From NCBI GenBank assembly GCA_012797735.1, contig JAAZOP010000458.1, positions 1-48,098 of the forward strand: DNA of 48,098 bases, read 5' to 3'. The DNA is from Myxococcales bacterium. GTDB taxonomy: Bacteria > Myxococcota_A > Polyangia > DRWM01 > JAAZOP01. Of the stretch, positions 1,044 through 45,986 are shown one piece after another; the first letter of the stretch is position 1, and the number at the start of each line of letters is the position of its first letter. Made by a program: the position numbers and the translations under genes. The notes under the pieces are model-generated. The model searched no databases and had not been told where the DNA came from. It saw nothing but the letters and a program-made list of their open reading frames with translations.

Positions 1044-1553
1044 CTAGGCGCGGCTCGCCGCGGGCTCCGGCTGCGCCTGCCCCGCCCGCGCGCGGCGGTT
1101 CTTGAACATCCAGGCGCCGAAGGCTCCGCCGGCTCCGAGGAGCGCGGCGACGCTCACGACGTAGCCGAGTTGCCGGGCGGAGGCCGGCGCGAACGGCCCG
1201 AGGTCGTAGTGCGGGCTGATGAACGCGCCGGCCACCGCCAGCACGACGAGGGCCAGCGCCGCCCACGGCACGCCGCGGTGCAGGAACGCGAGCACCAGCA
1301 GGACGAGGCCGGCCAGACCGGCGATGCCGAGCAGCACGGCGCCGACCCGCATCCGGCCGGTGCTCTCGGCGAGCTGCTTGAGCGTGCCCGCCTCCGCGCT
1401 CGACCCCTCCAGCGCGGCGAGTTCGTCCTTGGCGTCGCCGAGCAGGGCGTCGATGTCCTTCGCGTCGGTCAACCCCCGGTACGTCGCCAGGAAGCCGAAG
1501 CCCGAGGTGGCCAGCAGGGCCAGGGTGGCAAGAACCAGCATCAGAATCCGCAT
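1044..1553 (-). CDS. small integral membrane protein (169 aa, about four hydrophobic helices)
   Basis: ATG at 1553 with GGAGG (complement of 1561-1565) 7 nt upstream. Helices: [81 protein letters not shown]. Only the last 169 codons of the 493-aa track ORF look coding. Confidence 0.75.
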
Positions 1554-1620
1554 CTCTCTTCCTCCTTCTTTTCTCGCGCCGCGGCCGTCCCGGCCGCTCG
1601 CCTCCATGCCGGCGCCGATG

Positions 1621-1637
1621 AGCATCCTCCGTGCCAG
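1621..1637 (-). promoter_or_regulatory. sigma-54 (RpoN) -24/-12 promoter candidate for the 1044..1553 membrane-protein gene
   Basis: The minus strand reads 5'-CTGGCACGGAGGATGCT-3', i.e. TGGCACG-N4-aTGCT against consensus TGGCACG-N4-TTGCW. GG-N10-GC spacing is correct. The site is intergenic, about 70 nt upstream of the ATG at 1553 and oriented toward it. Confidence 0.6.
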
Positions 1638-1677
1638 GGCGCAACCCTGCGGAAGAACGAGACGTGCGGGTGGCGGT

Positions 1678-1697
1678 GCGGGTCCGTCCGGACCCGC
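1678..1697. promoter_or_regulatory. inverted repeat, candidate enhancer (UAS)/operator site 1
   Basis: GCGGGTCCG-tc-CGGACCCGC, with perfect 9-bp arms. Lies about 45 bp upstream of the -24 element of the 1621-1637 promoter. Confidence 0.5.
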
Positions 1698-1709
1698 TTC
1701 GCGTCCGGG

Positions 1710-1729
1710 GTGGGTCCGCGCGGACCCAC
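1710..1729. promoter_or_regulatory. perfect 20-bp palindrome, candidate enhancer (UAS)/operator site 2
   Basis: GTGGGTCCGCGCGGACCCAC. Same GGGTCCG/CGGACCC half-sites as site 1, centres 32 bp apart (about three helical turns). Ends 48 nt upstream of the activator ATG at 1777. Confidence 0.5.
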
Positions 1730-1776
1730 TTGCGCTTCTCGGGCGCCCGCGGCTACGGTGCGGCGGTCGAGGGGCG

Positions 1777-3108
<1,332 letters not shown>

Positions 3109-14052: not shown

Positions 14053-14853
14053 TCATCGCCGGACGGGACCCAGGTGCGTCACGTACCAGTCCCGACCCCA
14101 GTGGATCAGCACGCGGATCTCCACCTCGATCTCGCGCCGGCCGGTCCACGCGGTGATCCGGTTCCGCCGGCACGACCAGTACGGGATCCGGTTCCCCTCC
14201 CCCCCCTTCGGCACCCATTCGCAACGGCCGAACCGGAAGCGGCGGAACTCGAGCGCATCGACCCCGCCCAACTCCTCGCGCTTCGCGCGCAGGTCCTCCT
14301 CGAACCACCGCACAAGCCGCCGGTGGTAGGCCGCCGGGTCGGGCAGGTCCTTCAGGAGCGTGAACGGGCCGAGCGGGAAGACCAGGTCGCGGACCGGCGT
14401 CGGGTCGCCGGCGAGGATGGCCGGCAACAGCCGCCGGGCGAGCGCCTCGGCCGACTCCGCGCCGGGACGCTCGCCGCGCTCGCGGTTCTCGATCGGCACC
14501 TCGGGGACGGCCGGGGCACCGCCGGCGGGTCCGACGATCCCTCCTCCGGGCGGCAGGACGACATCGAGCGCCGGGCCCGCGTCGACCAGCGCGGGCGGCG
14601 AGGCGGCGTCGAGTGCCGGGCCGGCATCGGCGGGCGCGGGCGTCGCCCCCTCGCCCGGCTCCACGGGCGGTGCGGCGGCAGTGCGCTCCGCATCGCTTTG
14701 CGGATGCGTGGAGGCTCCCGCGGCGCGGGCGGCAGGGGCATCGTCCGGCCCCGATGCGGCGGCCGGAGCCTCTCGCTCGCCCCGGCACGCCGGGATCGTC
14801 GCCAGGCAGATCCCGAACGCGAGCATGGCGGCGGCGGATCGTGCGCGCTTCAT
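14053..14853 (-). CDS. hypothetical lipoprotein (266 aa)
   Basis: ATG 14853. MKRARSAAAMLAFGICLATIPAC lipobox-like signal, Pro/Ala/Asp linker with a DAGPALD direct repeat, and a folded C-terminal domain. No family recognised. Confidence 0.65.
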   Translation of the reverse strand: MKRARSAAAMLAFGICLATIPACRGEREAPAAASGPDDAPAARAAGASTHPQSDAERTAAAPPVEPGEGATPAPADAGPALDAASPPALVDAGPALDVVLPPGGGIVGPAGGAPAVPEVPIENRERGERPGAESAEALARRLLPAILAGDPTPVRDLVFPLGPFTLLKDLPDPAAYHRRLVRWFEEDLRAKREELGGVDALEFRRFRFGRCEWVPKGGEGNRIPYWSCRRNRITAWTGRREIEVEIRVLIHWGRDWYVTHLGPVRR

Positions 14854-15044
14854 CCGTCGCTTCCGTTCCGGGACGAGCCGGGCCGCCCCCGCGGCGCCCG
14901 GCCGTCTCGAGGGTCGTTTGTAGCGACGCGCGGCCGCCGGCGCAACCCGGCGTCGCCGCACGCCGGCGTCACGTTCTGCGAGCGCCCCGCGGAGGTGAGG
15001 CGCGACCGCCCGCGCCGGCGAACGGGCGCGGGGTCGCGGCGCCT

Positions 15045-15085
15045 CGGTGCATGACTTGCGGGATCCGGCCGGCATCTCCTAGAAT
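15045..15085 (+). promoter_or_regulatory. promoter region of the PSI-repeat gene; type ambiguous (sigma-70-like TTGCGG-N18-TAGAAT, or weak sigma-54-like cGGTGC-N5-TTGC)
   Basis: TTGCGG at 15056-15061, TAGAAT at 15080-15085. Alternatively GG (15046-47)-N10-GC (15058-59). The ATG is at 15138. Confidence 0.35.
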
Positions 15086-15137
15086 TCCTTCCGGCTTGGA
15101 TCCCAGCAGACCCGAGCCTGCCGGAAGGGAGGCCGAG

Positions 15138-17564
15138 ATGTCGAGATTCGCGGGTACCGGGCGCGCGAGGTGGGCGGCGGCCCTGGCGGGGGCCGCGCTG
15201 GCGCTCGCCTGTGCGCCGTCGAGCGACGACACGGTGATCCGGGACGTGCCGCGGGACGCGCGGGACGGCACGGACGACACGGCGACGCCCGACGGGTCGG
15301 TCCGCTGCGGGCACGACCGCGAGCCGTGCTGTTCCGGCTCGGGTTGCGGCCCGGGGCTGACCTGCGTCGCGGGCACCTGCACCGCCGCGGCCGCCTGCGG
15401 TCGCGAGGGCCAGCCCTGCTGTTCCGGGATGGCCTGCGCGGACGAACTGGTGTGCACGGGCGGCACGTGCGTGGCGGAGCCGGCGTGCGGAGGCGAGCGG
15501 CAGCCGTGCTGCGCCGGCGGCGCCTGCCGGTCGGGCCTGGTGTGCGACCGCGACACGTGCGTGCCGACGGCCGCCTGCGGGAGTCTCCGCCAGCCGTGCT
15601 GCTCCGGCACCGCCTGCGCCTCGGGCCTCGTCTGCACCGCGGGCGTCTGCGAGACGGCGCCGGCCTGCGGCGGGGCGCGCGAGCCGTGCTGCGGCGGCAC
15701 GGCGTGCAACGCGGGGCTGGTCTGCACCGGAGGGACCTGCCAGACGGCGCCCGCCGCCTGCGGTGCCCTCGGCCAACCCTGCTGTTCCGGTTCGACGTGC
15801 ACCGCGTCCGGCGCGACCTGTTGCGGCGGGGCTTGCGTCGACACGACGCGCGATCCGCGGAACTGCGGTTCCTGCGGCGCCCGCTGCGACGGGACCTGCA
15901 GCGGCGGCAGCTGTTCGAGCGCCTCCTGCGGCGCGGAAGGCCAACCCTGCTGCACGTCGGGCGACCGCTGCCGCGCGGGGCTGGAATGCAACGCGGCGAG
16001 CCAGTGCGTCCGGAGTTCGAGCGCCTGTTCCCCGGTGCGCGCGGCGTGCGCGGCGGCCTCCGAGTGCTGTTCGTCGCTGAGCTGCCGGGGCGCGCCGGAC
16101 GACGCGCAGTGCTGCGTCGAGGCCGGCGGCTCGTGCGCCTCGAGCCTCGATTGCTGCGGCTGGATGTCGTGCGTCTCCGGTCACTGCGCCTGCCAGGTCG
16201 GTTCCGACCTGTGCGCGGCGACCGCCGACTGCTGTTCGGGGTTGACCTGCACCGACGAAAGCTGCACGACCGGCTCCACGACCGACCCCTGCGCCGAGGC
16301 GAGGAGCTGCGCGGACTGCACCGGGCGCGCGAGCTGCGGTTGGTGCGGCGCCACGGCGACCTGCATGACCGGGGCTCTGGCCGGACCGACGGCCGGAAGC
16401 TGCGCCTCCGGCTGGAGCTGGTACGTCAGCTCCTGCGGCGCCACGACCGACCCGTGCGCCGCCAACACCGACTGCGCGTCGTGCAACTCGGTCGCCACCT
16501 GCGGCTGGTGCCGCGCCACCGGCACCTGCGCCACCGGCGGCAGCGCCGGCCCGACCTCCGGCTCCTGCGCCGACTGGGTCTGGTACGTCAGCGGCTGCTC
16601 GGGGTCCACCACCGACCCCTGCGACAGCCACGGCTCGTGCGGCACCTGCACGGTCGTCGCGGGCTGCGGCTGGTGCAACGACACATCGTCCTGCCGCACG
16701 GGGACGTCTTCCGGCCCGAGCAGCGGGTCGTGCGGCGACTGGGACTGGCTGTCCTTGCAGTGCGCCGCGGACGAGTGCGCGGGGACGTACGACTGCGAAG
16801 CCTGCACGGGCACGGCCGCCTGCGGCTGGTGCAACTCCACCTCGACCTGCATGAGCGGGAGTTGGGGCGGCCCGGCGAGCGGCTCGTGCGCCGATTGGGT
16901 CTGGTACGCGTCGGCCTGCGCCTCCGCCGACCCGTGCGACGACTCGTGGAGTTGCGAAGACTGCACCGGTCGGGCCGCCTGCGGCTGGTGCGCCGCGAGC
17001 TGGACCTGCATGACCGGTGGACCGGCGGGACCCGATGCCGGCGCCTGCTCCGACTGGCGGTACCGCTCGTCCGACTGCGTCACGACCGACCCGTGCAACG
17101 GCCACGGCGACTGCGCCACGTGCACCGCCGACTCCGCCTGCGGCTGGTGCGAGGCGACCTGGACCTGCATGACCGGCGGCTCGTCCGGACCGACGTCCGG
17201 GTACTGCTCCGACTGGCGGTACTACGGCTCGTCCTGCCCCGCGCCGCCCGATCCCTGCGACGTCCACTCGGACTGCGCGGCCTGCACCGCCGCCTCCGGC
17301 TGCGGCTGGTGCGAGGCCACCTGGTCCTGCCTCACCGGCACCTCGTCCGGCCCGACCGGCTCGTACTGCTCCGACTGGAACTACTACCCCGCCGACTGCG
17401 TCCCGTCCGACCCGTGCAACGACCACTGGAGCTGCACGACCTGCACGGGCGACTCGGCCTGCGGCTGGTGCGAGTCGAGCTACACCTGCATGACCGGCGA
17501 TTACTACGGCCCGGACGTCGGTTCCTGCTCCGACTGGCGGTACTACGACACCGAGTGTCCGTAG
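15138..17564 (+). CDS. secreted, extremely Cys-rich repeat protein: 7x 'QPCC' units + 8x PSI-like (plexin-semaphorin-integrin) units
   Basis: ATG 15138 after GGAAGGGAGG. Signal RWAAALAGAALALAC. Repeats are read directly from the translation (see the repeat features). 808 aa. Confidence 0.85.
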   Translation: MSRFAGTGRARWAAALAGAALALACAPSSDDTVIRDVPRDARDGTDDTATPDGSVRCGHDREPCCSGSGCGPGLTCVAGTCTAAAACGREGQPCCSGMACADELVCTGGTCVAEPACGGERQPCCAGGACRSGLVCDRDTCVPTAACGSLRQPCCSGTACASGLVCTAGVCETAPACGGAREPCCGGTACNAGLVCTGGTCQTAPAACGALGQPCCSGSTCTASGATCCGGACVDTTRDPRNCGSCGARCDGTCSGGSCSSASCGAEGQPCCTSGDRCRAGLECNAASQCVRSSSACSPVRAACAAASECCSSLSCRGAPDDAQCCVEAGGSCASSLDCCGWMSCVSGHCACQVGSDLCAATADCCSGLTCTDESCTTGSTTDPCAEARSCADCTGRASCGWCGATATCMTGALAGPTAGSCASGWSWYVSSCGATTDPCAANTDCASCNSVATCGWCRATGTCATGGSAGPTSGSCADWVWYVSGCSGSTTDPCDSHGSCGTCTVVAGCGWCNDTSSCRTGTSSGPSSGSCGDWDWLSLQCAADECAGTYDCEACTGTAACGWCNSTSTCMSGSWGGPASGSCADWVWYASACASADPCDDSWSCEDCTGRAACGWCAASWTCMTGGPAGPDAGACSDWRYRSSDCVTTDPCNGHGDCATCTADSACGWCEATWTCMTGGSSGPTSGYCSDWRYYGSSCPAPPDPCDVHSDCAACTAASGCGWCEATWSCLTGTSSGPTGSYCSDWNYYPADCVPSDPCNDHWSCTTCTGDSACGWCESSYTCMTGDYYGPDVGSCSDWRYYDTECP
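15306..16007 (+). repeat. about 30-aa six-Cys 'CG-x3-QPCC-x-G-x2-C-x2-GLVC-x2-G-x-C' units: six consecutive, plus one after a Stig1-like insert
   Basis: CGxxx[QE]PCC motifs at aa 57, 86, 117, 147, 177, 208 and 264. The insert carries CVDTTRDPRNCGSCGARC. Confidence 0.85.
16284..17561 (+). repeat. eight tandem ~53-aa (about 159-nt) PSI-like units, each with eight Cys and a CGWC core
   Basis: CGWC at aa 399, 455, 510, 562, 615, 668, 722 and 775. Unit pattern: DPC-x4-5-C-x2-C-x5-6-CGWC-x5-6-C-x2-G-x3-GP-x3-G-x-C-x2-W-x-Y-x3-4-C. Confidence 0.8.
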
Positions 17565-17581
17565 CTCGGGTCGCGAGGGCC

Positions 17582-17625
17582 CGGCGGCGGGTTCCTGCCG
17601 GACGCGGGGCCGTCCTCCGCCGCCG
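17582..17625. terminator. GC-rich hairpin between convergent genes (weak bidirectional terminator candidate)
   Basis: CGGCGGCGG (17582-90) pairs with CCGCCGCCG (17617-25), with an inner GGACG/CGTCC stem. No U-tract. Confidence 0.25.
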
Positions 17626-17651
17626 CCGGCGGCGCCGGGATGGGGGACCGC

Positions 17652-20018
17652 TCAGATCAGGCAGTCGGCCAGGCCGCTGGCCCCGTTGTTCCCCTCGAGA
17701 CACTCGGCGACGGCACCGTCCGGGTCGGACACCGCCTCGAACACGCCGTCCGCCTGCACCGGCGCCAGGCACTCCACCTCGGCGCACCGTCCGGGCGGCA
17801 CCGGGTCGGGCGTCACCAGCCGGCACAACTCCTCGCCTCCCTCCTGGCGGAAGATCACCGTCACGCCGGAATCGATCAGCGCGCCGCCGCGGTTGCACAC
17901 TTCGGCGCGGATCCGCGTGTTTTCGTCCTCGCAGACCGCCTGCAGCCGGCCGACGGTGAAGTCCGGGCCCGGCACGTCGGTCAGCGTGCCCTGCACGTTC
18001 TGGCGGAAGTTATTGAGGCCGCCGACCTCCCAGTTCCGCCGCCAGGCGCTCGTCCGCGGGATCGAACCGTCGTCCTCGACGTTCGTGACGGAGTACGCGT
18101 GCTGGTTCCAGATCGACCGCGAGGAGGCCCAGCGGTCGTGGGCGTCGCGGTAGATGCGGAGTTGCGGGACGCAGTCGAGGTGGCGGGCGCGGCAGACGTT
18201 GCCGGTGCCGGGCGTCCCGGCCAGCGGCGGCGAGCAGCCGAACGTCGCACCGCAGTCGGCGTCGGTCATGCAGCGGCAGTACCCCTCGTCGCACGCCCCG
18301 CCGGGGCAATCCGCCGCCGTGTCGCACCGCAGCCCCGCGAACAGGTCGTCCCACCCCGAACCGCTCGGCCCCGCGCAGTACGCCGGCGCGCACGGACCGC
18401 TCATCCCCACCACCATCTCGGCGGCGAAGTCGTTGTCCACGTCCGCGACGATCGGGTTCTCCTGCCAGGTGCTGGAGAAGCGCGCCTGCGAGAAGAGCAC
18501 GGCGCCCGTCGTCCCGTCGTACACCCGCACGTAGCACTCGTCGCCGTACACCACCTCGGCCATCCCGTCCCCGTTGAAGTCGAAGACGCTCGAACCGGTC
18601 CGCGCGGACGACAGGTCCTGCGACGGCTGCAGCCACAGCACCCCGCCGGCGACGAAGTCGTAGACCACGTAGTGCGACCCGAACGCGGCCCCCGCCTCGG
18701 GGAACCCGTCGCCGTCGTAGTCGGCGATCGTCGGCGGCCCGCCGCCGCGCGAGGGCGCGGTGTAGCTGCCGAGCACGGTGCCGCCGATGCTGAGCAGCGT
18801 GATCTGCTGCCCGTAGACCGAGACCACCTCGGGCCGCCCGGGCGCGTCCCCGGCGGCGGTCGGGAAATCGCCGAAGTCGGCCACCGCGGTCCAACCCTCC
18901 TGGCCGGGCCCGGCCCAGTACGGCTCGAGCACGAAGGCGCGGGTCGCCGCGTCCCAGCCCCACGTGGCCGACCCCGCCACCAGCTCCGGCACGCCGTCCA
19001 GATCGACGTCCGCGACGACCGACGGGTAGCCGGTCGAGCGGACGGGCCAGCCGGGCACGCTGGACAGCCGCAGGCCGTCCGCATCCCACACCCCGCCCTC
19101 GAAGATCACCTCGGCCCGCCCGTCGTCGTCGAGGTCCGCCAGCGTCACGCCGCTCCACAAGCACTGGCCGGAGCCGTGCAGGTCGAGCGATCCGTCGGCG
19201 AGGTGGCTGTGCCAGACGCGGACGAGCCGTCCGGCCGCGGGGTCCCAGCGGAACGCCAGCAGGCCGCCGGCCGCACCCGCCGCGACGACCTCGACCGCGG
19301 TGTCGCCATCGATGTCGCCGGCCGCGGGCGTGACGGGCGAGTTGAGCCGGTCGGCCTCGTCGGTGACCGCCGCCTGCTCGCGGCACGTCGCGCCGTCGAT
19401 CACCCGGAGCGTCCCCGCCGCCCCGCACCCGCGCGGCGGCCCCTCGTAGTACGTCGCGTCGGAAATGAAGATCACGCTCGGGCGGGTCGGCACGTCCGGC
19501 GCCGTCGCGATCCCCAGGTCGGCGACCAGCGGCGTGTGGAGGATCCGGTTGAACGTCGGCGCCGGATCGTCCGCCGGCGGGCCGTCCCACGTGCACTGCA
19601 GACCGGGGCGCACGGGCCCGGGCACCGCCGCGCGCACGCACGCCGGGTCGAACTCCCCGGGTCCCCACGGCACGCAGAAGCCTCCGACGCAGCGCATGTC
19701 GTCCTGGCACTCCGCCCCCGGCGCGCACGGAATCCCGGTGCCGCCGTCGTCGGCGTCGCCGTCCGCGCCCGTTCCCTCCTCGCCGGCGTCGCCGTCCGCG
19801 TCCGCGTCCGCGCCCACGACCGTCTCGCCGTCACCCGCGTCGGGCCGCGGCACGCAGCGGTTGCCGACGCAGATCCGACCCGGCCCGCACTGGTCCGACG
19901 TCGTGCAGCTCGACTCGCCGTCGTCGCCGCAGCCGATCGAGAGCACCGGCACCGCCAGCAGCGCCGCCCCCAGGCACGCCGCCGCCAAGTTCCAGCTTCC
20001 GCTCGCGTTCGCCGTCAT
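17652..20018 (-). CDS. FG-GAP/VCBS-repeat (integrin-alpha-like beta-propeller) lipoprotein with CARDB-like C-terminal domain
   Basis: ATG 20018 after GGGGAGGG. Signal LAVPVLSIGC. Six DxDxDG-type blades: DIDGDTAVEVV, DLDDDGRAEVIF, DVDLDGVPELV, DYDGDGFPEAG, DFNGDGMAEVVY, DVDNDFAAEMVV. C-terminus NRGGALIDSGVTVIF...CLEGNN. Confidence 0.85.
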   Translation of the reverse strand: MTANASGSWNLAAACLGAALLAVPVLSIGCGDDGESSCTTSDQCGPGRICVGNRCVPRPDAGDGETVVGADADADGDAGEEGTGADGDADDGGTGIPCAPGAECQDDMRCVGGFCVPWGPGEFDPACVRAAVPGPVRPGLQCTWDGPPADDPAPTFNRILHTPLVADLGIATAPDVPTRPSVIFISDATYYEGPPRGCGAAGTLRVIDGATCREQAAVTDEADRLNSPVTPAAGDIDGDTAVEVVAAGAAGGLLAFRWDPAAGRLVRVWHSHLADGSLDLHGSGQCLWSGVTLADLDDDGRAEVIFEGGVWDADGLRLSSVPGWPVRSTGYPSVVADVDLDGVPELVAGSATWGWDAATRAFVLEPYWAGPGQEGWTAVADFGDFPTAAGDAPGRPEVVSVYGQQITLLSIGGTVLGSYTAPSRGGGPPTIADYDGDGFPEAGAAFGSHYVVYDFVAGGVLWLQPSQDLSSARTGSSVFDFNGDGMAEVVYGDECYVRVYDGTTGAVLFSQARFSSTWQENPIVADVDNDFAAEMVVGMSGPCAPAYCAGPSGSGWDDLFAGLRCDTAADCPGGACDEGYCRCMTDADCGATFGCSPPLAGTPGTGNVCRARHLDCVPQLRIYRDAHDRWASSRSIWNQHAYSVTNVEDDGSIPRTSAWRRNWEVGGLNNFRQNVQGTLTDVPGPDFTVGRLQAVCEDENTRIRAEVCNRGGALIDSGVTVIFRQEGGEELCRLVTPDPVPPGRCAEVECLAPVQADGVFEAVSDPDGAVAECLEGNNGASGLADCLI

Positions 20019-28222: not shown

Positions 28223-29302
28223 CTAGACGTCATCGAGGTAGATCGCGACCTCGGCCTCCCGGACGTGCGTGTAGTCGAGGGTCACGGCGGTGAGCACGAT
28301 CCAGATCCAGCACGAGTGGGTGTCGCATTCGAGGTGGCCGACCGGGGAGGTCACGTCGCCGTACCACATCTCCTCGCGGTCGATGTTCGCGATCAGTTCG
28401 CCGGCGGAGCCGTCCCCGGCGTCGAAAGAGATGTTGGCGCCGTTGCCGAGCGTGCTGTCGTCGAAGGCGTAGACGAAGACGCTGACGTCCGTGACGCAGC
28501 CGGCGAGCAGCGCGTCGAAGCTCCAGCCGGCGTAGACGGTGGCGTCCGAGCCGGGGACGACCCCGGAGCTGAGGAGGATCCAGGGGGGGCCGAGGTCCGG
28601 ATCGGGGCTGATCACGTCGCCGAGCCAGACCATCTCGTCGCCGTAGATCGTGCCGAGCACCAGCCAGCCGTCGCCGCAGCGCGGCTGGCAGACGGCGTCG
28701 CCGCCGACGCAATCGTTGTCGAACCCGTCGCCGCAGATCTCGTCGGCGCCGGGATGGACCCAGGCGGCGGAGTCGTCGCAATCCGGGCCCCAGCAGCCGG
28801 CCCCCGTGCCGTAGCCGTCGCCGTCCTCATCGATACAGGCCGGGGGACACGGCAGGTCCCCGCCGTAGCAGTCGTTGTCGATCCCGTCGCCGCAGATCTC
28901 GCCCGCCCCCGGGCGGATCGAAGCGTCGGAATCGTTGCAGTCCGGCCCGCGGCACAGCGGCCCCTCGCCGTAGGTGTCGCCGTCGGCGTCGCGGCAGCGG
29001 GAGGTGTTGCAAGGGTCGTCGCCGCCGAAGCAATTGTCGTCGGTCCCGTTGCCGCAGATCTCCTGCGCGCCGGGGTTGTCCCACGGGTCGTGGTCGTCGC
29101 AGTCGAGGCCCGCGAACAGGCAGGCCGGGTCGGGCCGGGAGCCGTAGCCGTCGCCGTCGAGGTCCGGACAGCCGCCCTCGTCCCCGTCGCAGGCGGCGGC
29201 GCAGGCCGCGACCAGCGACAGGATCCCGAAGACCGGGCCGGAGCGCCGCTCCGCCGCTCCTCGGCGCCTCGACGTTCCCCCCGCCGGCCCGCGAGATTCC
29301 AC
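28223..29302 (-). CDS. lipoprotein with three MopE-like 'putative metal-binding motif' repeats
   Basis: Signal [12 protein letters not shown]. Three copies of D-x-DGDGYG...C..PDCDD.D....PGA.E.CGDG.DNDC.GGD..C. The C-terminal ~150 aa have no recognised domain. Confidence 0.75.
28688..29164 (-). repeat. three ~50-aa MopE-like metal-binding-motif units
   Basis: aa 47-205 of the 28223..29302 product, read from the translation. Confidence 0.8.
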
Positions 29303-29357
29303 GCCACGGCAGGATAGCCTCGGTCCCGAGGGTGCGGCAAGCGCGGATGCCGCCGAT

Positions 29358-29387
29358 TTGACACTGGCGCAAGGGGGCCGCTACGTT
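29358..29387 (+). promoter_or_regulatory. sigma-70-like promoter candidate for the Ser/Thr kinase gene
   Basis: TTGACA (29358-63) - 18 nt - TACGTT (29382-87), 30 nt upstream of ATG 29417. GGGAG SD at 29402-06. Confidence 0.4.
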
Positions 29388-29416
29388 GGGTCTTCCGGCC
29401 GCGGGAGCCGGCACCG

Positions 29417-31381
29417 ATGGAGTTGCAGGAAGGTTCCACTTTCGGCCCCTATCGGATCGTCGCCCGGATCGGGCGCGGCGGCATGGCCGAGGTGTACCTG
29501 GCGCAGCGCACGGGACCCGGAGGGTTCGCTCGCGACCTGGTGATCAAGCGCATCCTGCCGCACCTGGCGGAGGACCAGGAGTTCGTCCGGATGTTCGTCA
29601 ACGAGGCGGCGATCCTGGCCCGCCTCACCCATTCCAACGTCGCCCAGGTCTACGACTTCGGGCGGATCGATGACAGCTACTACCTGGCGATGGAGTATGT
29701 CCGCGGCACGTCTCTCGACCGCCTCCTCGCCGTGTTCGCCGGCGAGGGGCTGCCGATTCCGATCGCCGTCCGCATCGTCGCCGACACCGCCCGCGGCCTC
29801 GCCTACGCCCATCGCGCCACCGACGCCCTCGGCCGGCCGCTCGGGATCGTCCACAGCGACATCAGTCCGAGCAACATCCTGATCTCGTTCGAGGGCGAGG
29901 TGAAGCTGATCGATTTCGGCATCGCGCGCGCCGGCTCCCAGCACTCCGAGCACGGGGCGCTGAAGGGCAAGGTCCGCTACATGTCGCCCGAACAGTGCCG
30001 CGGCGAGAGGCTCGACGCCCGCACCGACATCTACTCCCTCGGCATCGTCCTCTGGGAAACGCTCACCGGCCGCAACCTGTACGACCAAGACCAGCCGGTC
30101 GAGGTGCTGACGGCGGTGCTGGAGCAGCCGACGCCGCCCCCGAGCGAGCTGCGCGCGGACGTCCCGGAAGCCCTCGACCTGATCGCCCTCCGGGCGCTCG
30201 AGAAGAACCCCGCGGCCCGGTTCCAGCGCGCCGAGGAACTGGCCCAGGCGATCGACCTGTTCATCGCCGAGCAGCGGATGCTGGCGAACCAGCAGGTGCT
30301 CGGCGAACTCGTCAGCAGCCGGTTCGCCTCGACGCTCGTGATCTCGATCCGCGACGAGGCGCCCCTGCCGGCCTCCCAGCGCCCGGCGCCCACCGTGCGG
30401 GCGGTGCCGGGCCTCCCGGCGGAGACGCCGCCGCCGCGCGTTGCGACGGGGCGCGAGGCGGCGACGGTGGCCGAGGTTCCGGCGATCCAGTCGCCCCGCA
30501 GCGCCTCGGCCTTCGAGGTCGCCCCGACCCTCGCCGAGACGCAGGGCCTGCCGCCGCCGGCCGCGACGCCCCTGCCCCCGCGCGTCTCGGCCTCCCCCTC
30601 CGCCGCGGCGCCCTCGACCTCCGTGCTCGTCGCCGAACCCCTCCGCAAGCCCGCGACCGGCGACTCCGCCGACCCGCGGCCGGTGGCGAGCGTTCCGGTC
30701 ACGGCGGCGCGGGTCGACGTGCGGGCCCCGGCGCCGGAAGGACTATCGGCGAGTTGGCGAAGCTGGAACCGCGGGACGCGCTGGGTCCTGGCCGCCGCCG
30801 TGCTGGCTGTGGTCGCCGCCTTCGCCTTCCTCGCCTGGCTCGGCATGCGCGATCACCGCGCGGCCGCTCCCGGAACCCGCGTCGCGGCGGGACCCGCCCC
30901 CGCGGAGTCCACCCAGGCCGCCCCGCCGAAGCAGGCCGGCCCGCCCCTGGCCGGCGACGCCCCTGGAGCGTCGCCGGACGCGGGCGGGGCCGATCCCGCC
31001 GAGGCCGCCGCCGCCAAGGAGGTCGACGCCGGACCGGCGGCTTCGCCCGAGGCGGGCGCGGTTCCGGTCGATGCCGCGGCCGGACCGCCCGACGCTCCGG
31101 CGGAGGCGGCCGATTCGCGGGACGCTCGCCGGCGCGACGGATCGGGCTTGCCGGCACCCACCGCGGCCTACGGCCGTGCCACGATCGACAGCCGTCCCTG
31201 GTCGGTCGTCTTCCACCGCGGCCGGCGGTTGGGCGAGACGCCCGTGATCGATGTCGAACTGCCCGCCGGCAACCAGCCGCTCGTGTTGATCGACGGCACC
31301 GGCCGCCGCTACGAACGGACCCTGCGCGTCCTGCCGGGCCAGCTCGTCCGCACCCGCTTCGACCTGCTGGAAGAGCCGTGA
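29417..31381 (+). CDS. Hanks-type Ser/Thr protein kinase, single-pass, with C-terminal PEGA-like domain
   Basis: GRGGMAEVYLA (G-loop), VIKRI (Lys), HSDISPSNIL (catalytic loop), DFGIAR, SPEQ. TM segment VLAAAVLAVVAAFAFLAWLG. C-terminus ATIDSRPWSVVFHRGRRLGETPVIDVELPAGNQPLVLID. Confidence 0.95.
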   Translation: MELQEGSTFGPYRIVARIGRGGMAEVYLAQRTGPGGFARDLVIKRILPHLAEDQEFVRMFVNEAAILARLTHSNVAQVYDFGRIDDSYYLAMEYVRGTSLDRLLAVFAGEGLPIPIAVRIVADTARGLAYAHRATDALGRPLGIVHSDISPSNILISFEGEVKLIDFGIARAGSQHSEHGALKGKVRYMSPEQCRGERLDARTDIYSLGIVLWETLTGRNLYDQDQPVEVLTAVLEQPTPPPSELRADVPEALDLIALRALEKNPAARFQRAEELAQAIDLFIAEQRMLANQQVLGELVSSRFASTLVISIRDEAPLPASQRPAPTVRAVPGLPAETPPPRVATGREAATVAEVPAIQSPRSASAFEVAPTLAETQGLPPPAATPLPPRVSASPSAAAPSTSVLVAEPLRKPATGDSADPRPVASVPVTAARVDVRAPAPEGLSASWRSWNRGTRWVLAAAVLAVVAAFAFLAWLGMRDHRAAAPGTRVAAGPAPAESTQAAPPKQAGPPLAGDAPGASPDAGGADPAEAAAAKEVDAGPAASPEAGAVPVDAAAGPPDAPAEAADSRDARRRDGSGLPAPTAAYGRATIDSRPWSVVFHRGRRLGETPVIDVELPAGNQPLVLIDGTGRRYERTLRVLPGQLVRTRFDLLEEP

Positions 31382-31388
31382 CGCGCGG

Positions 31389-33689
31389 TCAGTCCTGCAC
31401 GCAGTAGACGAGCCAGCCGCTGTTGAGCGGCCGGCCGTCGGTCGTCGTGGCCGACGGGAGCGAGGGGATGCACGCCACGACGTCGGGCTTCCAGGTCCCG
31501 CGCCCGGTGCTGCCGGCGGGGCAGCCGCCCGCGGCGCCCGTGCAGTCGTCGGAGGCGATGTACAGACCCTCGCGCGTCGTGCGCGAGCACAGTTCCATCC
31601 AGCCGCTGCGCCGTTCGGTGCCGTTCCAGGCCACCCCGGAGGGTCCCCCCACGCAGCTCACGCCATCGACCTTGAACGCCGCGCGCGAGGCGTAGCCGGA
31701 CGGGCACCCCACGTACGGTCCGCCGCAGTCGTCGCTCCCCGCCGCGAGCAGCACGTCGTCGGTGGGCGAGCAGAGCGTCATCCATCCGGCGTCCAGCGCG
31801 TAGCCGCCGTAGTCGCTGCCGGTGGATCCGGGGTCGCCGCACGGGATGCTGTCGACCTTGAAGCTGCCGCGGGGCGCGTAGCCGGGCGGGCAGGTGCCGC
31901 TGGTCCCCGTGCAGTCGTCGTAGCCGTGGGCCAGCAGCGAGAACCCTTCATCGGTGACGCCGTCGCAATCGTCGTCGACGAAGTTCAGCGTCTCGGCCGG
32001 CGGCGTGCAGGCGCTCCACGTGCAGGTCGCGGAGCAGGTGCGGGAGCCGATCGTCCCGCAGGAGGTCGTGCACGAGCCCGTGGACCCGCGCACGCAGGCG
32101 AACCCGTTGTCCGCGCCGCCGACGCAATCGTCGTCCAGCCCGTTGCAGACCTCGACCGGCGGCGTGCAGCCGCCCCAGGTGCAGGCGGTCGAGCAGATCC
32201 GCGTGCCGGTCGTGCCGCAGGTGGTGGTGCACGGGCCCGTGGCGTTCCGGCAGCAGCCGAAGTCCTCGTCGCACAGGCCGTCGCAGTCGTCGTCCGAGCC
32301 GTTGCAGCTCTCCGCAGGCGGCGCACAGGCGCTCCACGCGCAGCCGCCGGAGCAGGTCTGGCTGCCGGTGGTGGAACAGGTCGTCGCGCAGGCCCTCGTG
32401 CTTCCAACGCAGCAGGTCCAACCCTCGTCGCAACTCGTGTCGCAGTCGTCGTCCCGTCCGTTGCACAGCTCGGCCGGCGGGTTGCAGGGGCCCCAGCTGC
32501 AGCCGGGACCGCAGGTGCGCGTGCCGGACGTTCCGCAACTCGCGGTGCAGCTTCCGCTCGTCCCCAGCACGCAGCCGAACCCCTCGTCGGTCAGCGTGTC
32601 GCAGTCGTCGTCCAGGCCATTGCACGATTCGGCCGGCGCCGTGCAGCCGCTCCAAGAGCAGGCGGTCGAGCAGGTCCGGACGCCGGTCGTCCCGCAGCTC
32701 GTCGTGCACGTGCCGGTCGCCCCCCGGCAGCACTCGAAGTCCTCGTCGCAGGCGCCGTCGCCGTCGTCGTCGACCCCGTTGCACGCCTCGGCGGTGGCCG
32801 AGCAGACGCCCCAGGTGCAGCCGGCGATGCAGTTGCGCCGGCCGGGCGCCCCGGCGCCCGTGGTGCAGCTCTCGCTGGAGCCGAGCACGCAGCCCAGGCC
32901 GTCGTCCGCGGCGCCGTCGCAGTCGTCGTCCAGGCCGTTGCACGCTTCCGCGGGCGGCGTGCAGCCCGCCCCGGCCGGCGGTTCGCAGGCCAGCGTGCAG
33001 GAGCCGGCGCCGATCGAACCGCAGGTGGTCGTGCAGTGCACCGTCGTGCCGATCGCGCACCCGAAACCCTCGTCGACCGCCCCGTTGCAGTCGTCGTCCG
33101 CCCCGTTGCACGTCTCCGTGTCGGACGTCCAGCTGCACGCGTACTCGCACCCGGGCGCCCCGTCGAGGTCGCGCCAACCCTCGCGGCAGGCGAGGCCGCA
33201 CACGCCGTCGAGGCACGCGCCGTCCGCGTGGAGGGCGCCCTCGCAGGCATGGTCGCAGGCACCGCAGTGGTCGGCGTTGCTCCGCAGGTCGACACAGGAC
33301 GCCCCGCACAGCGTGAGAATCCCGGAGCAGGCCGAGGCGCAGGCGCCCTCGTTGCAGACCATGCCCTCCGGGCAGGCCAGGCCGCAACCGCCGCAATGGT
33401 CCGCGTTCGAGGTCGGATCGATGCACTCGTCGCCGCAGCGCACGCGTCCGGGCGGGCACGGCGGAGGCCCGTCCTCGACCGCGTCGCCGTCCGCGTCCGC
33501 ATCGGCCCCGTCCGCGTCCGCGCCGGTCTCGCCGGCGGGTCCGTCGGACGGGCCGTCGGCGTCGGCCGCATCGGCGCCGCCGGGATCCGGGGCGCCGGCG
33601 TCGTCCGGCATCCCCGTGCCCCCGGTGGCGCACGCCCCCGCCAGCAGCACCGCCAAGCCCCACCAGCCGGTGTCGACCGAACGACCCAT
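31389..33689 (-). CDS. secreted Cys-rich repeat lipoprotein: Stig1-like motifs, 8x MopE-like ~53-aa units, 3x C-terminal four-Cys modules
   Basis: Signal WWGLAVLLAGAC, D/A/G linker, CIDPTSNADHCGGCGLAC and CVDLRSNADHCGACDHAC motifs, then the repeats (see the repeat feature). The stop is 7 nt from the kinase stop (convergent). Confidence 0.85.
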   Translation of the reverse strand: MGRSVDTGWWGLAVLLAGACATGGTGMPDDAGAPDPGGADAADADGPSDGPAGETGADADGADADADGDAVEDGPPPCPPGRVRCGDECIDPTSNADHCGGCGLACPEGMVCNEGACASACSGILTLCGASCVDLRSNADHCGACDHACEGALHADGACLDGVCGLACREGWRDLDGAPGCEYACSWTSDTETCNGADDDCNGAVDEGFGCAIGTTVHCTTTCGSIGAGSCTLACEPPAGAGCTPPAEACNGLDDDCDGAADDGLGCVLGSSESCTTGAGAPGRRNCIAGCTWGVCSATAEACNGVDDDGDGACDEDFECCRGATGTCTTSCGTTGVRTCSTACSWSGCTAPAESCNGLDDDCDTLTDEGFGCVLGTSGSCTASCGTSGTRTCGPGCSWGPCNPPAELCNGRDDDCDTSCDEGWTCCVGSTRACATTCSTTGSQTCSGGCAWSACAPPAESCNGSDDDCDGLCDEDFGCCRNATGPCTTTCGTTGTRICSTACTWGGCTPPVEVCNGLDDDCVGGADNGFACVRGSTGSCTTSCGTIGSRTCSATCTWSACTPPAETLNFVDDDCDGVTDEGFSLLAHGYDDCTGTSGTCPPGYAPRGSFKVDSIPCGDPGSTGSDYGGYALDAGWMTLCSPTDDVLLAAGSDDCGGPYVGCPSGYASRAAFKVDGVSCVGGPSGVAWNGTERRSGWMELCSRTTREGLYIASDDCTGAAGGCPAGSTGRGTWKPDVVACIPSLPSATTTDGRPLNSGWLVYCVQD
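31941..33116 (-). repeat. eight tandem ~53-aa (about 159-nt) units E-x-CNG-x-DDDCDG-x2-DEGF-x-C-x2-G-x4-C-T-x2-CGT-x-G-x-R-x-C-x3-C-x-W-x2-C-x-PPAE
   Basis: E.CNG.DDD motifs at aa 192, 248, 301, 354, 407, 460, 513 and 566 (the last is degenerate: ETLNFVDDDC). Confidence 0.85.
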
Positions 33690-33812
33690 GACCCACCTCC
33701 GTTGAAAGAAGAGTAGCCGGTCGACGGGCGATAGACCACCCCGGAGCGTGTGGCGGCCGCTCCGTACGGTTGGCCCTTCCCTCCGGGCCGCAAGTTCCTA
33801 TACTGAGCGGTC

Positions 33813-35180
33813 GTGGGCAAGCGACCGTATCGTTCCGAGGAACAGACCAAGGTGGACCGGGAGGCCGCCGGCGGCCGGTCGCCCGAGCCGGTCCGCTGCT
33901 CGCTGTTCGTGATCGATGGACCGTCCTGCGGCCGTTCGGTGCGGGTGGGCCGCGACCCGGTGACGGTCGGCTCCGCCCCGGACTCGGACTTGGCCCTCGA
34001 GGACCCCACCGTCTCCCGCCACCACGTCACGGTCCAGGCGGTGCCCGGCGGGTTCCAGGTGACCGACCAGGGCTCGACGAACGGCACGTTCTACGAGGGT
34101 TCGCGGATCACGCAGGCGGTCGTCGGGCCGGGAGCGGTGCTGCGCGTCGGCCGGACGTCGCTCGTCCTGCGCCCGGACGACAGCGTGGAGGCGATCGAGC
34201 CGTCGGCGCGGCAGGCCTTCGGGGACCTGGACGGCGTGAGCCTGGCGATGCGCCGCCTGTTCGCCGTGCTGGAACAGGTGGCGCCGACCGACAGCACGGT
34301 GCTCGTCGAGGGCGAGACCGGCACGGGCAAGGAGCTGGTCGCCTGGGCGCTGCACCAGGGCAGCCCCCGCCGCTCGGGACCGTTCGTCGTCTTCGACTGC
34401 GGCGCGGTCCCGCGGGAGCTGATCGAGAGCGAGCTGTTCGGGCACGTGCGGGGCGCGTTCACCGGGGCCACCGCGGACCGGCCGGGGGCGTTCGTCCGGG
34501 CGAACGGCGGCACGGTGTTCATCGACGAGCTGACCGCGATGCCGCTCGAACTCCAGCCGAAACTGCTGCGGGCGCTCGAGTCGCGCGCGGTCAAGCCGGT
34601 GGGCAGCGATCACCCGCGCCCGGTCGACGTGCGGGTCGTGGCGGCGTGCAACACCGACATCGAGGCCGAGGTGCGGGCGGAACGGTTCCGCGCCGACCTG
34701 TTCTATCGCCTGTCGGTGGTCCACGTGCGGATCCCGCCGCTCCGCCGGCGGCGCGAAGACATCGCGCCGATCGTCCGGCGCATCCTGTCGCGGCTCGGAA
34801 TCGCCGACCCCGGACCGATCGAAGGCCCGAACCTGGAGCGGCTCACCGCGCACGCCTGGCCGGGGAACGTCCGCGAACTGCGCAACGTGATCGAACGGGC
34901 CGTCGCGCTCTCCGGCACCCGCGCGCCGCGGTTCTGCGACCTGCGCCTGCAGATCGGCCCCGCCGTGCAGCAGGAGGAGCTGCGGGTGCGCACGGAGTCG
35001 ACGTTCGCCGAGGCGAAGGAGGAACTGACCGCCTCGTTCGAGAAGCGGTACCTCGCCGACCTGATGGAACGCTGCCACGGCAATATCTCGCTCGCCTCGC
35101 GCGTCGCCGGCCTGGACCGCAAGCACCTGCGCAAGCTGCTGCGGCGGCACGGGCTGATCCCGGGCGGGGAGGAGGAGTGA
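33813..35180 (+). CDS. second sigma-54-dependent activator with N-terminal FHA domain (paralogue of 1777..3108)
   Basis: GTG 33813. FHA VSRHHVTVQAVPGGFQVTDQGSTNGTFYEG. GETGTGKE, GAFTGA, TVFIDELT. HTH NISLASRVAGLDRKHLRKLL. Confidence 0.9.
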   Translation: MGKRPYRSEEQTKVDREAAGGRSPEPVRCSLFVIDGPSCGRSVRVGRDPVTVGSAPDSDLALEDPTVSRHHVTVQAVPGGFQVTDQGSTNGTFYEGSRITQAVVGPGAVLRVGRTSLVLRPDDSVEAIEPSARQAFGDLDGVSLAMRRLFAVLEQVAPTDSTVLVEGETGTGKELVAWALHQGSPRRSGPFVVFDCGAVPRELIESELFGHVRGAFTGATADRPGAFVRANGGTVFIDELTAMPLELQPKLLRALESRAVKPVGSDHPRPVDVRVVAACNTDIEAEVRAERFRADLFYRLSVVHVRIPPLRRRREDIAPIVRRILSRLGIADPGPIEGPNLERLTAHAWPGNVRELRNVIERAVALSGTRAPRFCDLRLQIGPAVQQEELRVRTESTFAEAKEELTASFEKRYLADLMERCHGNISLASRVAGLDRKHLRKLLRRHGLIPGGEEE

Positions 35181-37950: not shown

Positions 37951-38895
37951 TCAGCCGGGATTGCGCGGGTCGTCACAGAACGACGGACCGCCGCCCTCGG
38001 GAGTGATGCAGGTCCAATGCCCGCACTGCCCCGCCCACGGACTCGTTTCGCCCTCCACCGCGTTCCACCGGCAGTCCCGCTGCAAGGAGCACGGCCGAGC
38101 GCAGTACAACACGGTGATCGTGGACCCCAGCACCTCGGCGGTCGCCGCGCGCGGAACGTAGCCCGACGGACACTCGAACCGCTCCGCGCTGCCGAAGTGC
38201 GGAATCATCGAGCAGACCGCGTCCGCGCCGTCGCACACCACCGCCATCCACGTGCAGTACCCCTCCGCCGCGCGGATTTCCAGCGGCCATCCGAACGCGC
38301 TCAAGGTCCGGAAACACGTGATCCGTGCGACTCCGTCGACCGGCTCCGGCACGGACTCGCACCCTTCGAACCTCCCGGCGCTGAAGTCGTAGTCGTTGCA
38401 GTCGGCGACGCACCGGCACGGCGCGCCGATGCCGTGGTCGTTGGCCGTGCACGAGGTGGTGCACTCGTCGAAGCTGTCCAGGTTCCCGTCGTCGCACGCC
38501 TCGCCCGGGTCGAGCCGACCGTCGCCGCACGTCTGGAGTCGCAGCGAGCAGTCGGACAGGCAGGCTCGCTCGAGGTCGCCGCCGCACCATTCGGTTTCGG
38601 TATCGCCGTCGTCGCACACCTCGTCCGGGTCGACGATGCCGTCGCCGCAGGCGGCCGGCGCGTCGGGTCGCCCGTCGGCCGGCGCGTCGTCCGATCCCCC
38701 GGCCTCGGCGTCGCCGCCCGCATCCGCACCGTCCGCCTCGACCGCCGCGTCGCCGCCGTCGTCGCCGCCGGTGCCCTCGACGACGACGTCCGCCTCGCCG
38801 GTCCCCGCATCGTCCGCCGCGGCCGACCAGTCGTGTCCGCAGGCCGCCCCGAGCGTTCCCCAGAGCGCGATCAGCCAAGCCTTCCTGCCGCGCAT
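37951..38895 (-). CDS. lipoprotein with two Myxococcus-type cysteine-rich repeats (CGDG..D.GE.CDDGN)
   Basis: ATG 38895 (GGGAGA upstream). Signal LIALWGTLGAAC, D/A/G linker, CGDGIVDPDEVCDDGD and CGDGRLDPGEACDDGN repeats, then an uncharacterised Cys-rich C-terminal domain. Confidence 0.75.
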   Translation of the reverse strand: MRGRKAWLIALWGTLGAACGHDWSAAADDAGTGEADVVVEGTGGDDGGDAAVEADGADAGGDAEAGGSDDAPADGRPDAPAACGDGIVDPDEVCDDGDTETEWCGGDLERACLSDCSLRLQTCGDGRLDPGEACDDGNLDSFDECTTSCTANDHGIGAPCRCVADCNDYDFSAGRFEGCESVPEPVDGVARITCFRTLSAFGWPLEIRAAEGYCTWMAVVCDGADAVCSMIPHFGSAERFECPSGYVPRAATAEVLGSTITVLYCARPCSLQRDCRWNAVEGETSPWAGQCGHWTCITPEGGGPSFCDDPRNPG

Positions 38896-39138
38896 GCCGA
38901 TCTCCCGCTTCCTGGGCGACATCATGAACGGTCCAGCGGCGCGCGTCCAGCCCCCGCGCCGCGCGGGAGCGCTCGAGCAGGGAGGCGCAAGACGCCTCCC
39001 GGCCGCTGGGTGCCCCGGCAAGACCGTGGTCCGGGACGGCGGAGTCGCGGCGGCATTCCGGCGTGGACGCCGCCGCCCGGCTCGCGTAGTCTGTCGCGAC
39101 GGCGAGCCGCGTCGCCCGCCGCGACGCGAGGAGCATGC

Positions 39139-42521: not shown

Positions 42522-43090
42522 CGCGCCGCCCCCTCCCGCGGCTCGACGAACCGCAACCCCGCCGGCTTCCCGCCGCCCGCCTCCGCGAAATCGCCGCGCA
42601 CCACCAGCCGCCCCAGCACCGGCCTCGCCTCCGGGAGCGGCGGCAACGGCACCACGCACGACCGCGTCCCCGCCTCCGCGAACTCGAGCCGGCAGGCCGC
42701 GCCGCCGACCTCCACCTCGACCGCCAGCGGCCACGCCCGCGCTCCGCGCGCCTCCAGCGTCACCGGCAACCCCGCCTCCGGGCCGCGCAGCGCCAGGAAG
42801 TACGACACCGGCGCCGCGCTCCAGCCGCCCGCGGTCCGCGCCAGGTGCTTCCGCCGCTTGCCGCCCAGCCGATCCAGCGCCAGCGCCGGGTGCCGTTCGA
42901 TGCACCGCGCGAGCGCCGCGGCGTCCTCCTCCGACAGCTCGGCCACGCCCCGGTCGGCCCGCGTCAGGATCCACCACGCCCGGTCGAGGTCCGGCTGCTC
43001 CATCCCCCAGGCGAGGAAGACGGCCAGCCCGCCCCAACTCGCGACGAGCAGCACGAAGCCGCCGCCGGGCACGAACCGCCGCGCCCTCAC
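42518..43090 (-). CDS. hypothetical N-terminally anchored protein (190 aa)
   Basis: The GTG overlaps the CotH stop (GTGA 43087-90), with GGGAGGAG 6 nt upstream. TM segment FVPGGGFVLLVASWGGLAVFLAWG. Its stop overlaps the VTC ATG (ATGA 42518-21). No family recognised. Confidence 0.55.
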   Translation of the reverse strand: MRARRFVPGGGFVLLVASWGGLAVFLAWGMEQPDLDRAWWILTRADRGVAELSEEDAAALARCIERHPALALDRLGGKRRKHLARTAGGWSAAPVSYFLALRGPEAGLPVTLEARGARAWPLAVEVEVGGAACRLEFAEAGTRSCVVPLPPLPEARPVLGRLVVRGDFAEAGGGKPAGLRFVEPREGAAR

Positions 43091-45903: not shown

Positions 45904-45986
45904 CAGCCGGGACCAGCCGGGCCCGGCGCCCCAGCGCCAGGGCCGAAGGCCCTCGCCGCCGCCCGGCTCGGCGGACGTGTCGTCCG

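Follow-up and report, generated by a model that had tools for sequence, protein, structure and literature searches.

A tandem array of eight probable PSI domains in a predicted lipoprotein of a Myxococcales bacterium

Introduction

The plexin-semaphorin-integrin (PSI) domain is described as a module of 50-60 amino acids (aa) with up to eight cysteines and a CxWC motif (PMC6374515). The same evolutionary survey of plexins and semaphorins places PSI in the receptors of animals and choanoflagellates, and bacteria, prokaryotes and the protist Thecamonas are unmentioned in it. Here we ask whether eight cysteine-rich repeats encoded by a bacterium are genuine PSI domains, what their history has been, and what they may do. 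The repeats form the C-terminal part of an 808-aa product encoded at positions 15138 to 17564 of a stretch of Myxococcales DNA of 48,098 nucleotides (nt) (contig JAAZOP010000458.1 of assembly GCA_012797735.1), the whole of which is referred to as the window. An earlier note on this DNA had read them as a pure tandem array of a metazoan adhesion module on a bacterial surface protein, maintained by selection.

The PSI family is known, and its bacterial members are detected by Pfam. Automatic annotation already labels them: one homologue of the window protein is called 'Matrixin/Plexin repeat' in IMG, several have precomputed PF01437 matches, and NCBI names another 'M64 family metallopeptidase [Polyangia bacterium]'. 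What is unusual is the architecture, a lipoprotein composed of cysteine modules throughout, and the eight-unit array. The value of the case is limited by the fact that annotation pipelines already give such proteins the label 'Plexin repeat' and that function is not assignable from sequence. Its interest lies in the existence of a full, selectively maintained PSI array on a predicted bacterial surface protein, and in a family of ~2000 clusters that is common to Myxococcota and diverse protists and in which PSI is combined with extracellular-matrix-type enzymes (matrixin, lysyl oxidase). It offers a tractable bacterial system for studying what PSI does alone, be it as scaffold, binding module or thiol isomerase, and one more case for the study of gene flow between Myxococcota and eukaryotes.

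Results and Discussion

Eight contiguous units reach to the C-terminus

The tetrapeptide CGWC occurs exactly eight times in the 808-aa product, at aa 400, 455, 510, 562, 615, 668, 722 and 775. With the unit boundary set two residues ahead of each unit's first cysteine, eight contiguous units fill aa 383-808 (nt 16284-17561), up to the C-terminus. Their lengths are, in order, 55, 55, 52, 53, 53, 54, 53 and 51 aa, and each holds eight cysteines. They are listed below with scores of the unit hidden Markov model (HMM) and, for units 1-4, with the identity to the corresponding unit of the closest relative, the uncultured Myxococcales contig L036.

16284..16448 (aa 383-437), + strand: PSI unit 1; unit HMM 53.0 bits; 84% aa identity to L036 unit 1
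16449..16613 (aa 438-492), + strand: PSI unit 2; unit HMM 52.5 bits; 82% aa identity to L036 unit 2
16614..16769 (aa 493-544), + strand: PSI unit 3; unit HMM 56.0 bits; 75% aa identity to L036 unit 3
16770..16928 (aa 545-597), + strand: PSI unit 4, which begins with DEC and not DPC; unit HMM 49.0 bits; 79% aa identity to L036 unit 4
16929..17087 (aa 598-650), + strand: PSI unit 5; unit HMM 52.2 bits
17088..17249 (aa 651-704), + strand: PSI unit 6, the modelled unit; Pfam PSI 26.8 bits alone, AlphaFold pLDDT 92.5, Foldseek matches all plexins or semaphorins
17250..17408 (aa 705-757), + strand: PSI unit 7; unit HMM 55.8 bits; 77% nt identity to unit 6
17409..17561 (aa 758-808), + strand: PSI unit 8, with one residue between its last cysteine and the protein end; unit HMM 54.9 bits

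Every unit scored between 49 and 56 bits with the unit HMM, whereas the rest of a six-frame translation of the window nowhere exceeded 1.4 bits, a gap that excludes chance. Fifteen columns are invariant over the eight units (D1, C3, C9, C12, C18, G19, W20, C21, C27, G30, G34, P35, C40, W44 and C51), and the subtype can be written C-x5-C-x2-C-x5-CGWC-x5-C-x2-G-x3-GP-x4-C-x3-W-x-W/Y-x4-C. From the last cysteine of a unit to the next DPC the linker is only ~2-5 residues.

The number, contiguity and placement of the units, 51-55 aa each, are exactly as the earlier note had them. Its motif gave the right pattern, but the spacings are actually fixed (x5, x2, x5, x2, x5) and unit 4 departs from the DPC start. 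The ~159-nt period that it had described was recovered by Tandem Repeats Finder (TRF) at 72-76% matches, but only over units 4-8. Its statement that the units have diverged at the DNA level agrees with their pairwise nucleotide identities of 54-77%, the closest pair being units 6 and 7. The word 'pure' fits the C-terminal half of the protein but not the N-terminal 382 aa, which consist of other cysteine-rich modules.

The units are very probably PSI domains

At the level of sequence families, the whole 808-aa protein scored 25.9 bits against Pfam PSI (PF01437) over eight stretches, above the curated gathering cut-off of 23.1 bits, and unit 6 alone scored 26.8 bits over profile positions 2-52 of 52. 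No family besides PSI was found in the 808-aa product in this search up to an E-value of 10. When the window protein was aligned with its homologues (alignment A2, 76 units), 67 of the 76 units matched PSI individually at E<=0.01; the only other families matched were PSI_integrin (five units) and PSI_PlexinA-B (one unit). Bacterial relatives reach 80.7 bits on the Pfam profile. The unit size of 51-55 aa, the eight cysteines and the invariant CGWC agree with the published description of the domain.

The A2 profile was also compared with all sequences in the PDB, which gave 12 matches at E<=1, every one of them a plexin or Met PSI domain. The best match was plexin-B1 (E 0.0017), with cysteines 1-6 aligned column for column; the same search using just the eight window units was weak (E>=0.43). 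AlphaFold2 modelled unit 6 from A2 with a predicted local distance difference test score (pLDDT) of 92.5 and a predicted template modelling score (pTM) of 0.76. The predicted secondary structure is two short helices followed by a beta-hairpin (H2-5, H9-13, E18-21, E26-31). In a Foldseek comparison of this model with the PDB, all 38 matches were plexins or semaphorins, with best values of 0.97 for probability and 0.67 for the query TM-score (TMq) and with root-mean-square deviations of 2.3-3.0 A. Of the checks that had been proposed for the PSI assignment, all those run, among them a family search and a fold comparison, came out in its favour.

Searched against 1.84 billion representative proteins, the A2 profile retrieved 2004 at E<=1e-3, 70 of them at E<=1e-30. 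Eukaryotic PSI proteins were among them at E 1e-49 to 1e-84. One, AMSG_03689 of Thecamonas trahens (E 1.6e-49), scores 93.8 bits on Pfam PSI and also carries a RasGAP domain, a combination that makes it plexin-like. The full motif, with its G-x3-GP and W-x-W parts, recurs in the protist units, which are likewise arranged head to tail. Homology of the bacterial units to eukaryotic PSI is well supported, and that the eight units are genuine PSI domains is in our judgement very probable. To call the module metazoan, as had been done, is right in so far as it occurs in animal plexins, semaphorins and integrins, but too narrow, since Thecamonas, Ploeotia and Cavostelium hold the same tandem subtype.

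The gene encodes a predicted lipoprotein of cysteine-rich modules

The array belongs to a gene with the following parts besides the eight units.

15138..17564, + strand: whole gene, encoding the 808-aa cysteine-rich predicted lipoprotein (open reading frame and translation, third-position GC content, homologues)
15138..15212, + strand: putative signal peptide with lipobox (…AALALA-C25), MSRFAGTGRARWAAALAGAALALAC, the fit to the pattern judged by eye
15306..16016 (aa 57-293), + strand: seven 30-aa six-Cys repeats, CGxxGQPCCxGxxCxxGLxCxxGxC (regular-expression positions, TRF)
16017..16283 (aa 294-382), + strand: two knottin-like modules (…CC…C…DCCGWMSC…C.C…DCCSGLTC…), read from the sequence

The frame of the PSI array is coding. 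It opens with ATG at 15138 and closes with a stop codon at 17562-17564, and its GC content at third codon positions (GC3) is 0.94 within the open reading frame (ORF) vs 0.74 immediately upstream and is like that of the flanking genes. The top homologue of the product has an E-value of 5e-213. Although a crude GC3 filter let through an antisense ORF at 16181-17221, this was dismissed as a shadow ORF, as it uses the same third positions as the + strand gene. A promoter and terminator scan of 14700-17800 found none.

All modules of the product are small and disulfide-rich. From its N-terminus it is predicted to be a lipoprotein with the mature protein starting at Cys25, and an acidic low-complexity linker lies between Cys25 and the six-Cys repeats. 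These start at aa 57, 87, 117, 147, 177, 208 and 264, and a 90-nt period found by TRF across 15409-15755 underlies them. A 'DPRNCGSCG' insert in the sixth repeat resembles Stig1; the Stig1 family itself (PF04885) was encountered in distant homologues only. For the knottin-like module, homologues that share it have a precomputed match to Toxin_12 (PF07740), which the window protein itself does not. The N-terminal modules matched no Pfam or NCBIfam family, and the NCBIfam search of the whole product gave no match. There are 131 cysteines in the product (16% of residues), 64 of them in the PSI array. The total is one, the odd Cys25, plus 130, which fits complete pairing of all cysteines except the lipidated one.

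As a side observation, many metagenomic sequences, low-GC ones (P0005, P0009, P0012) among them, encode proteins made up entirely of the 30-aa six-Cys repeat.

The array is old and under purifying selection

The closest relative, L036, has ~81% nucleotide identity and seven complete units. Eight units are present in L009, from a groundwater metagenome-assembled genome (MAG), and six in the 5'-truncated gene P0001/L001. Eight is the longest complete bacterial PSI array among the sequences analysed, reached by the window protein and L009. Each of units 1-4 pairs with the unit of the same number in L036, the identities listed above standing against ~50-60% for non-corresponding pairs. For units 5-8 the comparison gives cross-similarity, an indication that this distal half has probably undergone later duplication or conversion.

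Between units 1-4 and their L036 counterparts, nonsynonymous (dN) and synonymous (dS) distances are 0.147 and 0.497 (dN/dS ~0.30); for the N-terminal part dN/dS is ~0.19. The PSI array is old and is under purifying selection. Selection on the array had earlier been argued from the divergence of its units; it does not follow from divergence alone, but the dN/dS value and the positional orthology of units 1-4 bear it out. Values of dN/dS between paralogous units (0.33-1.9) were judged unreliable, as extreme GC3 bias compresses synonymous distances.

Parts of the surroundings are conserved as well. A divergent lipoprotein gene upstream is kept in L009, downstream TPR and FecR genes are kept in L001, and orthologues with common flanks occur in three other Myxococcota MAGs. 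The array has been inherited together with its chromosomal neighbourhood in related genomes.

Among prokaryotes the unit occurs almost only in Myxococcota

A degenerate DNA pattern describing the PSI unit was run over 185,579 prokaryotic species, each represented by a single genome. Its matches comprised 36 loci, 31 that encode true units and five that arose by chance; the pattern demands exact spacings, so that 31 is a lower bound. Nearly all true-unit loci are from Myxococcota, namely Polyangiales, Polyangia, Sandaracinaceae, Nannocystaceae and MAGs labelled 'Deltaproteobacteria' or 'Myxococcales'. Among the genomes scanned, the PSI unit is almost confined to this phylum.

Two loci stand apart. 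One is in a MAG of Micrarchaeota, which are DPANN archaea (L030:770-1345, + strand, JBFLVJ010000009.1), and encodes a lipoprotein-like protein of 192 aa that scores 26.2 bits on Pfam PSI; the GC content of the locus is 52%. The other is a single, eukaryote-looking unit in a Dehalococcoidia MAG (L014:4099-4569, + strand), on a contig of 42% GC, and may be binning contamination.

Within Myxococcota the unit has several domain partners. In a matrixin-PSIx2-MYXO-CTERM architecture it follows the matrixin catalytic domain and precedes the MYXO-CTERM anchor. It is also found after M64 peptidase or lysyl oxidase domains, and between other cysteine modules. Homologues of the window protein carry signals or MYXO-CTERM anchors. 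The combination of lysyl oxidase with PSI (P0028, P0067, P0072) occurs in a high-GC protein of bacterial type and also in proteins of eukaryote-like composition with membrane-type C-terminal tails, and is a candidate for transfer of a whole architecture between domains of life.

Bacterial units are more alike than eukaryotic ones: mean identity between proteins was 44% vs 36%, in a comparison that is biased because the eukaryotic units were picked with the bacterial profile. The nearest neighbour was bacterial for 178 of 181 bacterial units. Composition separates the bacterial from the eukaryotic members of the 2004-protein family only approximately, as GC-rich eukaryotes overlap bacteria. These unit comparisons suggest a compact bacterial radiation set against an older eukaryotic PSI diversity, and the greater uniformity of the bacterial units leans towards transfer from a eukaryote to a bacterium.

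A bolder view would make the Myxococcota PSI, instead of a stray acquisition, one side of an ancient exchange of adhesion and extracellular-matrix building blocks with early eukaryotes, including PSI, matrixin, lysyl oxidase and similar domains, with entire architectures such as lysyl oxidase-PSI in common. In its strongest form Myxococcota would have donated PSI to eukaryotes, and a related idea is that tandem arrays are CXXC disulfide isomerases. The unit is almost limited to one bacterial phylum yet common to several eukaryotic supergroups, which is compatible with such an exchange, but the uniformity of the bacterial units leans against Myxococcota as donors. We regard the proposal as improbable.

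Comparison with known PSI-bearing systems

The bacterial units resemble the PSI of plexins, semaphorins, Met and RON (PF01437) in their length of ~50 aa, eight cysteines, central CGWC, and GP and W-x-W motifs; cysteines 1-6 align column by column with those of plexin-B1 and of Met, and the two-helix and small-sheet fold is predicted for unit 6. In contrast to those receptors, the window protein has no Sema, IPT, transmembrane or RasGAP/kinase partners; its eight units stand directly in tandem, its host is a bacterium, and its predicted anchor is a lipid. That the protein is itself a plexin or semaphorin was ruled out, PSI being the only Pfam family found in it and the PSI module being all that they share.

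Closest in unit type are surface proteins of protists with tandem PSI arrays (Thecamonas trahens AMSG_03689, AMSG_01607 and AMSG_09601; Ploeotia vitrea; Cavostelium apophysatum). They are the best matches to the A2 profile (E 1e-49 to 1e-84), and share the subtype motif in arrays of 5-13 units. Unlike the window protein they are type I membrane proteins, with transmembrane segments and with cytoplasmic tails or RasGAP, CUB or EGF partners. From the same phylum come the matrixin-PSI-MYXO-CTERM, M64 peptidase-PSI and lysyl oxidase-PSI proteins, which are secreted or surface proteins with the same PSI unit; in these, 2-6 units are accessory to a catalytic domain, whereas the window protein has none. 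The PSI of integrin beta (PF17205) has its CXXC motifs conserved too, and the five bacterial units noted above match it; the match is, however, weaker than that to PF01437, and the window protein lacks the long-range disulfide partner and, by Pfam, the hybrid or I-like domain context.

Proposed role and rival explanations

We think it reasonably probable that the window protein is a surface or extracytoplasmic lipoprotein of Myxococcota with eight true PSI domains, which may act as a stalk, scaffold or adhesion element. After export the protein would be lipidated at Cys25, and the remaining 130 cysteines would pair into ~65 disulfides. The product may then be a lipid-anchored chain of ~20 disulfide-knotted beads, a protease-resistant stalk of the beads-on-a-string kind, with the C-terminal 426 aa distal to the membrane and the PSI end pointing away from it. 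On the cell surface or in the extracellular matrix, such a chain could have a structural, spacing or adhesive role. The very short linkers between units, together with the distal position of the PSI half, point to a stable stalk, scaffold or adhesion element. In animal receptors PSI is a compact spacer beside Sema, IPT and hybrid domains. The role proposed here would resemble that one, and also the placement of PSI in the myxobacterial matrixin-PSI proteins, where it lies between catalytic domain and anchor. A stalk or adhesion function for the array in particular is a tentative assignment, with a little less than even chances.

Several observations weigh against this account. The protein ends with the PSI array, so that PSI spaces no further domain off the membrane, and a model of four units was poor (pLDDT 61.6, pTM 0.27), leaving rigidity of the array unsupported. 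The seventh cysteine of the bacterial units comes after the GP motif, and before it in plexin-B1. The Foldseek E-values are all >=0.08, which alone is not significant for so small a domain. Full-text literature searches found no paper discussing PSI in bacteria or Myxococcota.

The main competing explanation assigns the array a catalytic role, as an extracytoplasmic thiol-disulfide isomerase or oxidoreductase acting through two CXXC motifs per unit (C9-x2-C12 and C18-G-W-C21), 16 in total. Both motifs are invariant, in 8 of 8 window units and 76 of 76 related units. A disulfide-isomerase activity that depends on the CXXC motifs of PSI is reported for the MET ectodomain; MET, RON, integrins, plexin A1 and SEMA4D all conserve these motifs, and the same activity is cited for integrin beta (PMC9604360). 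Yet a single lipoprotein with eight catalytic units in a row would be unusual, and no redox-related gene is present in the neighbourhood. In solved PSI structures the CXXC cysteines are locked in structural disulfides, the connectivity in Met PSI being C1-C4, C2-C8, C3-C6 and C5-C7; if the bacterial cysteines sit in structural disulfides as well, folding alone accounts for the invariance. We hold catalysis to be unlikely. Slightly less likely still is a secreted effector of a predatory myxobacterium, a toxin, antimicrobial or metal-binding protein whose cysteine modules serve as pharmacophores and not as scaffold. This idea draws on homologues with the same N-terminal modules, which have the precomputed Toxin_12 (knottin) matches and in one case a MopE metal-binding motif, and on two more cysteine-rich lipoproteins of MopE type within the window (see below). 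The window protein, however, matches no toxin family or metal motif at E up to 10, its putative lipobox favours tethering to the membrane, and the PSI units of its relatives accompany enzymes as accessory modules.

Two further alternatives concern the identity of the units and of the DNA. A convergent bacterial cysteine repeat that merely mimics the PSI pattern might be suspected in a domain so short and cysteine-dominated, with the weak Foldseek E-values and the shifted seventh cysteine just mentioned. But single units pass the curated Pfam cut-off across the full profile length, and a profile made from bacteria only retrieves eukaryotic PSI, at the E-values given above, with the same residues other than cysteine (G-W between cysteines 4 and 5, GP, W-x-W); convergence is very improbable. 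Least probable of all is a eukaryotic contaminant or assembly chimera, an explanation suggested by the typically eukaryotic occurrence of PSI and by the Dehalococcoidia locus, which looks like contamination. The PSI-array gene instead has the GC3 of its flanking genes, carries a putative lipobox, is embedded among rpsF-rpsR-rplI-dnaB, a sigma-54 activator and FecR genes, and has the orthologues with common flanks in other Myxococcota MAGs. On this evidence we retain the lipoprotein with true PSI domains as the preferred reading.

Genomic neighbourhood

The window has a GC content of 74% and is an ordinary Myxococcota-type chromosome segment, with rpsF-rpsR-rplI-dnaB, FHA-sigma-54 activators, a Ser/Thr kinase, and FecR, TPR and FG-GAP proteins. 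The genes considered individually are these.

17652-19949, - strand: FG-GAP (integrin-alpha-like) repeat lipoprotein, convergent with the PSI gene
28223-29380, - strand: cysteine-rich lipoprotein with three Cu-binding_MopE motifs (86 bits)
31389-33690, - strand: cysteine-rich lipoprotein with 93 cysteines and ~nine MopE-like 'CNGxDDDCDGxxDE' metal-binding repeats
29318-31381: Ser/Thr kinase
1210-3108, + strand: FHA-domain sigma-54 enhancer-binding protein
33807-35180, + strand: FHA-domain sigma-54 enhancer-binding protein
38401-40947, + strand: type-B carboxylesterase (COesterase, 383 bits)
43087-46428: CotH-kinase-domain protein

The PSI gene and the adjacent FG-GAP gene were considered as an integrin-like alpha/beta pair. 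This was rejected because the FG-GAP gene is not found beside the orthologues, the adjacency being conserved in neither L001 nor L036. A long ORF listed as running to 21221 is an over-extension of the FG-GAP gene, and the + strand ORF at 31924-33705 is a shadow of the 93-cysteine lipoprotein gene. The carboxylesterase has an N-terminal extension of ~350 aa without family match, and belongs to a family better known from eukaryotes. Two FHA-sigma-54 proteins and kinases within 48 kb amount to a regulatory load that is consistent with a Myxococcota chromosome.

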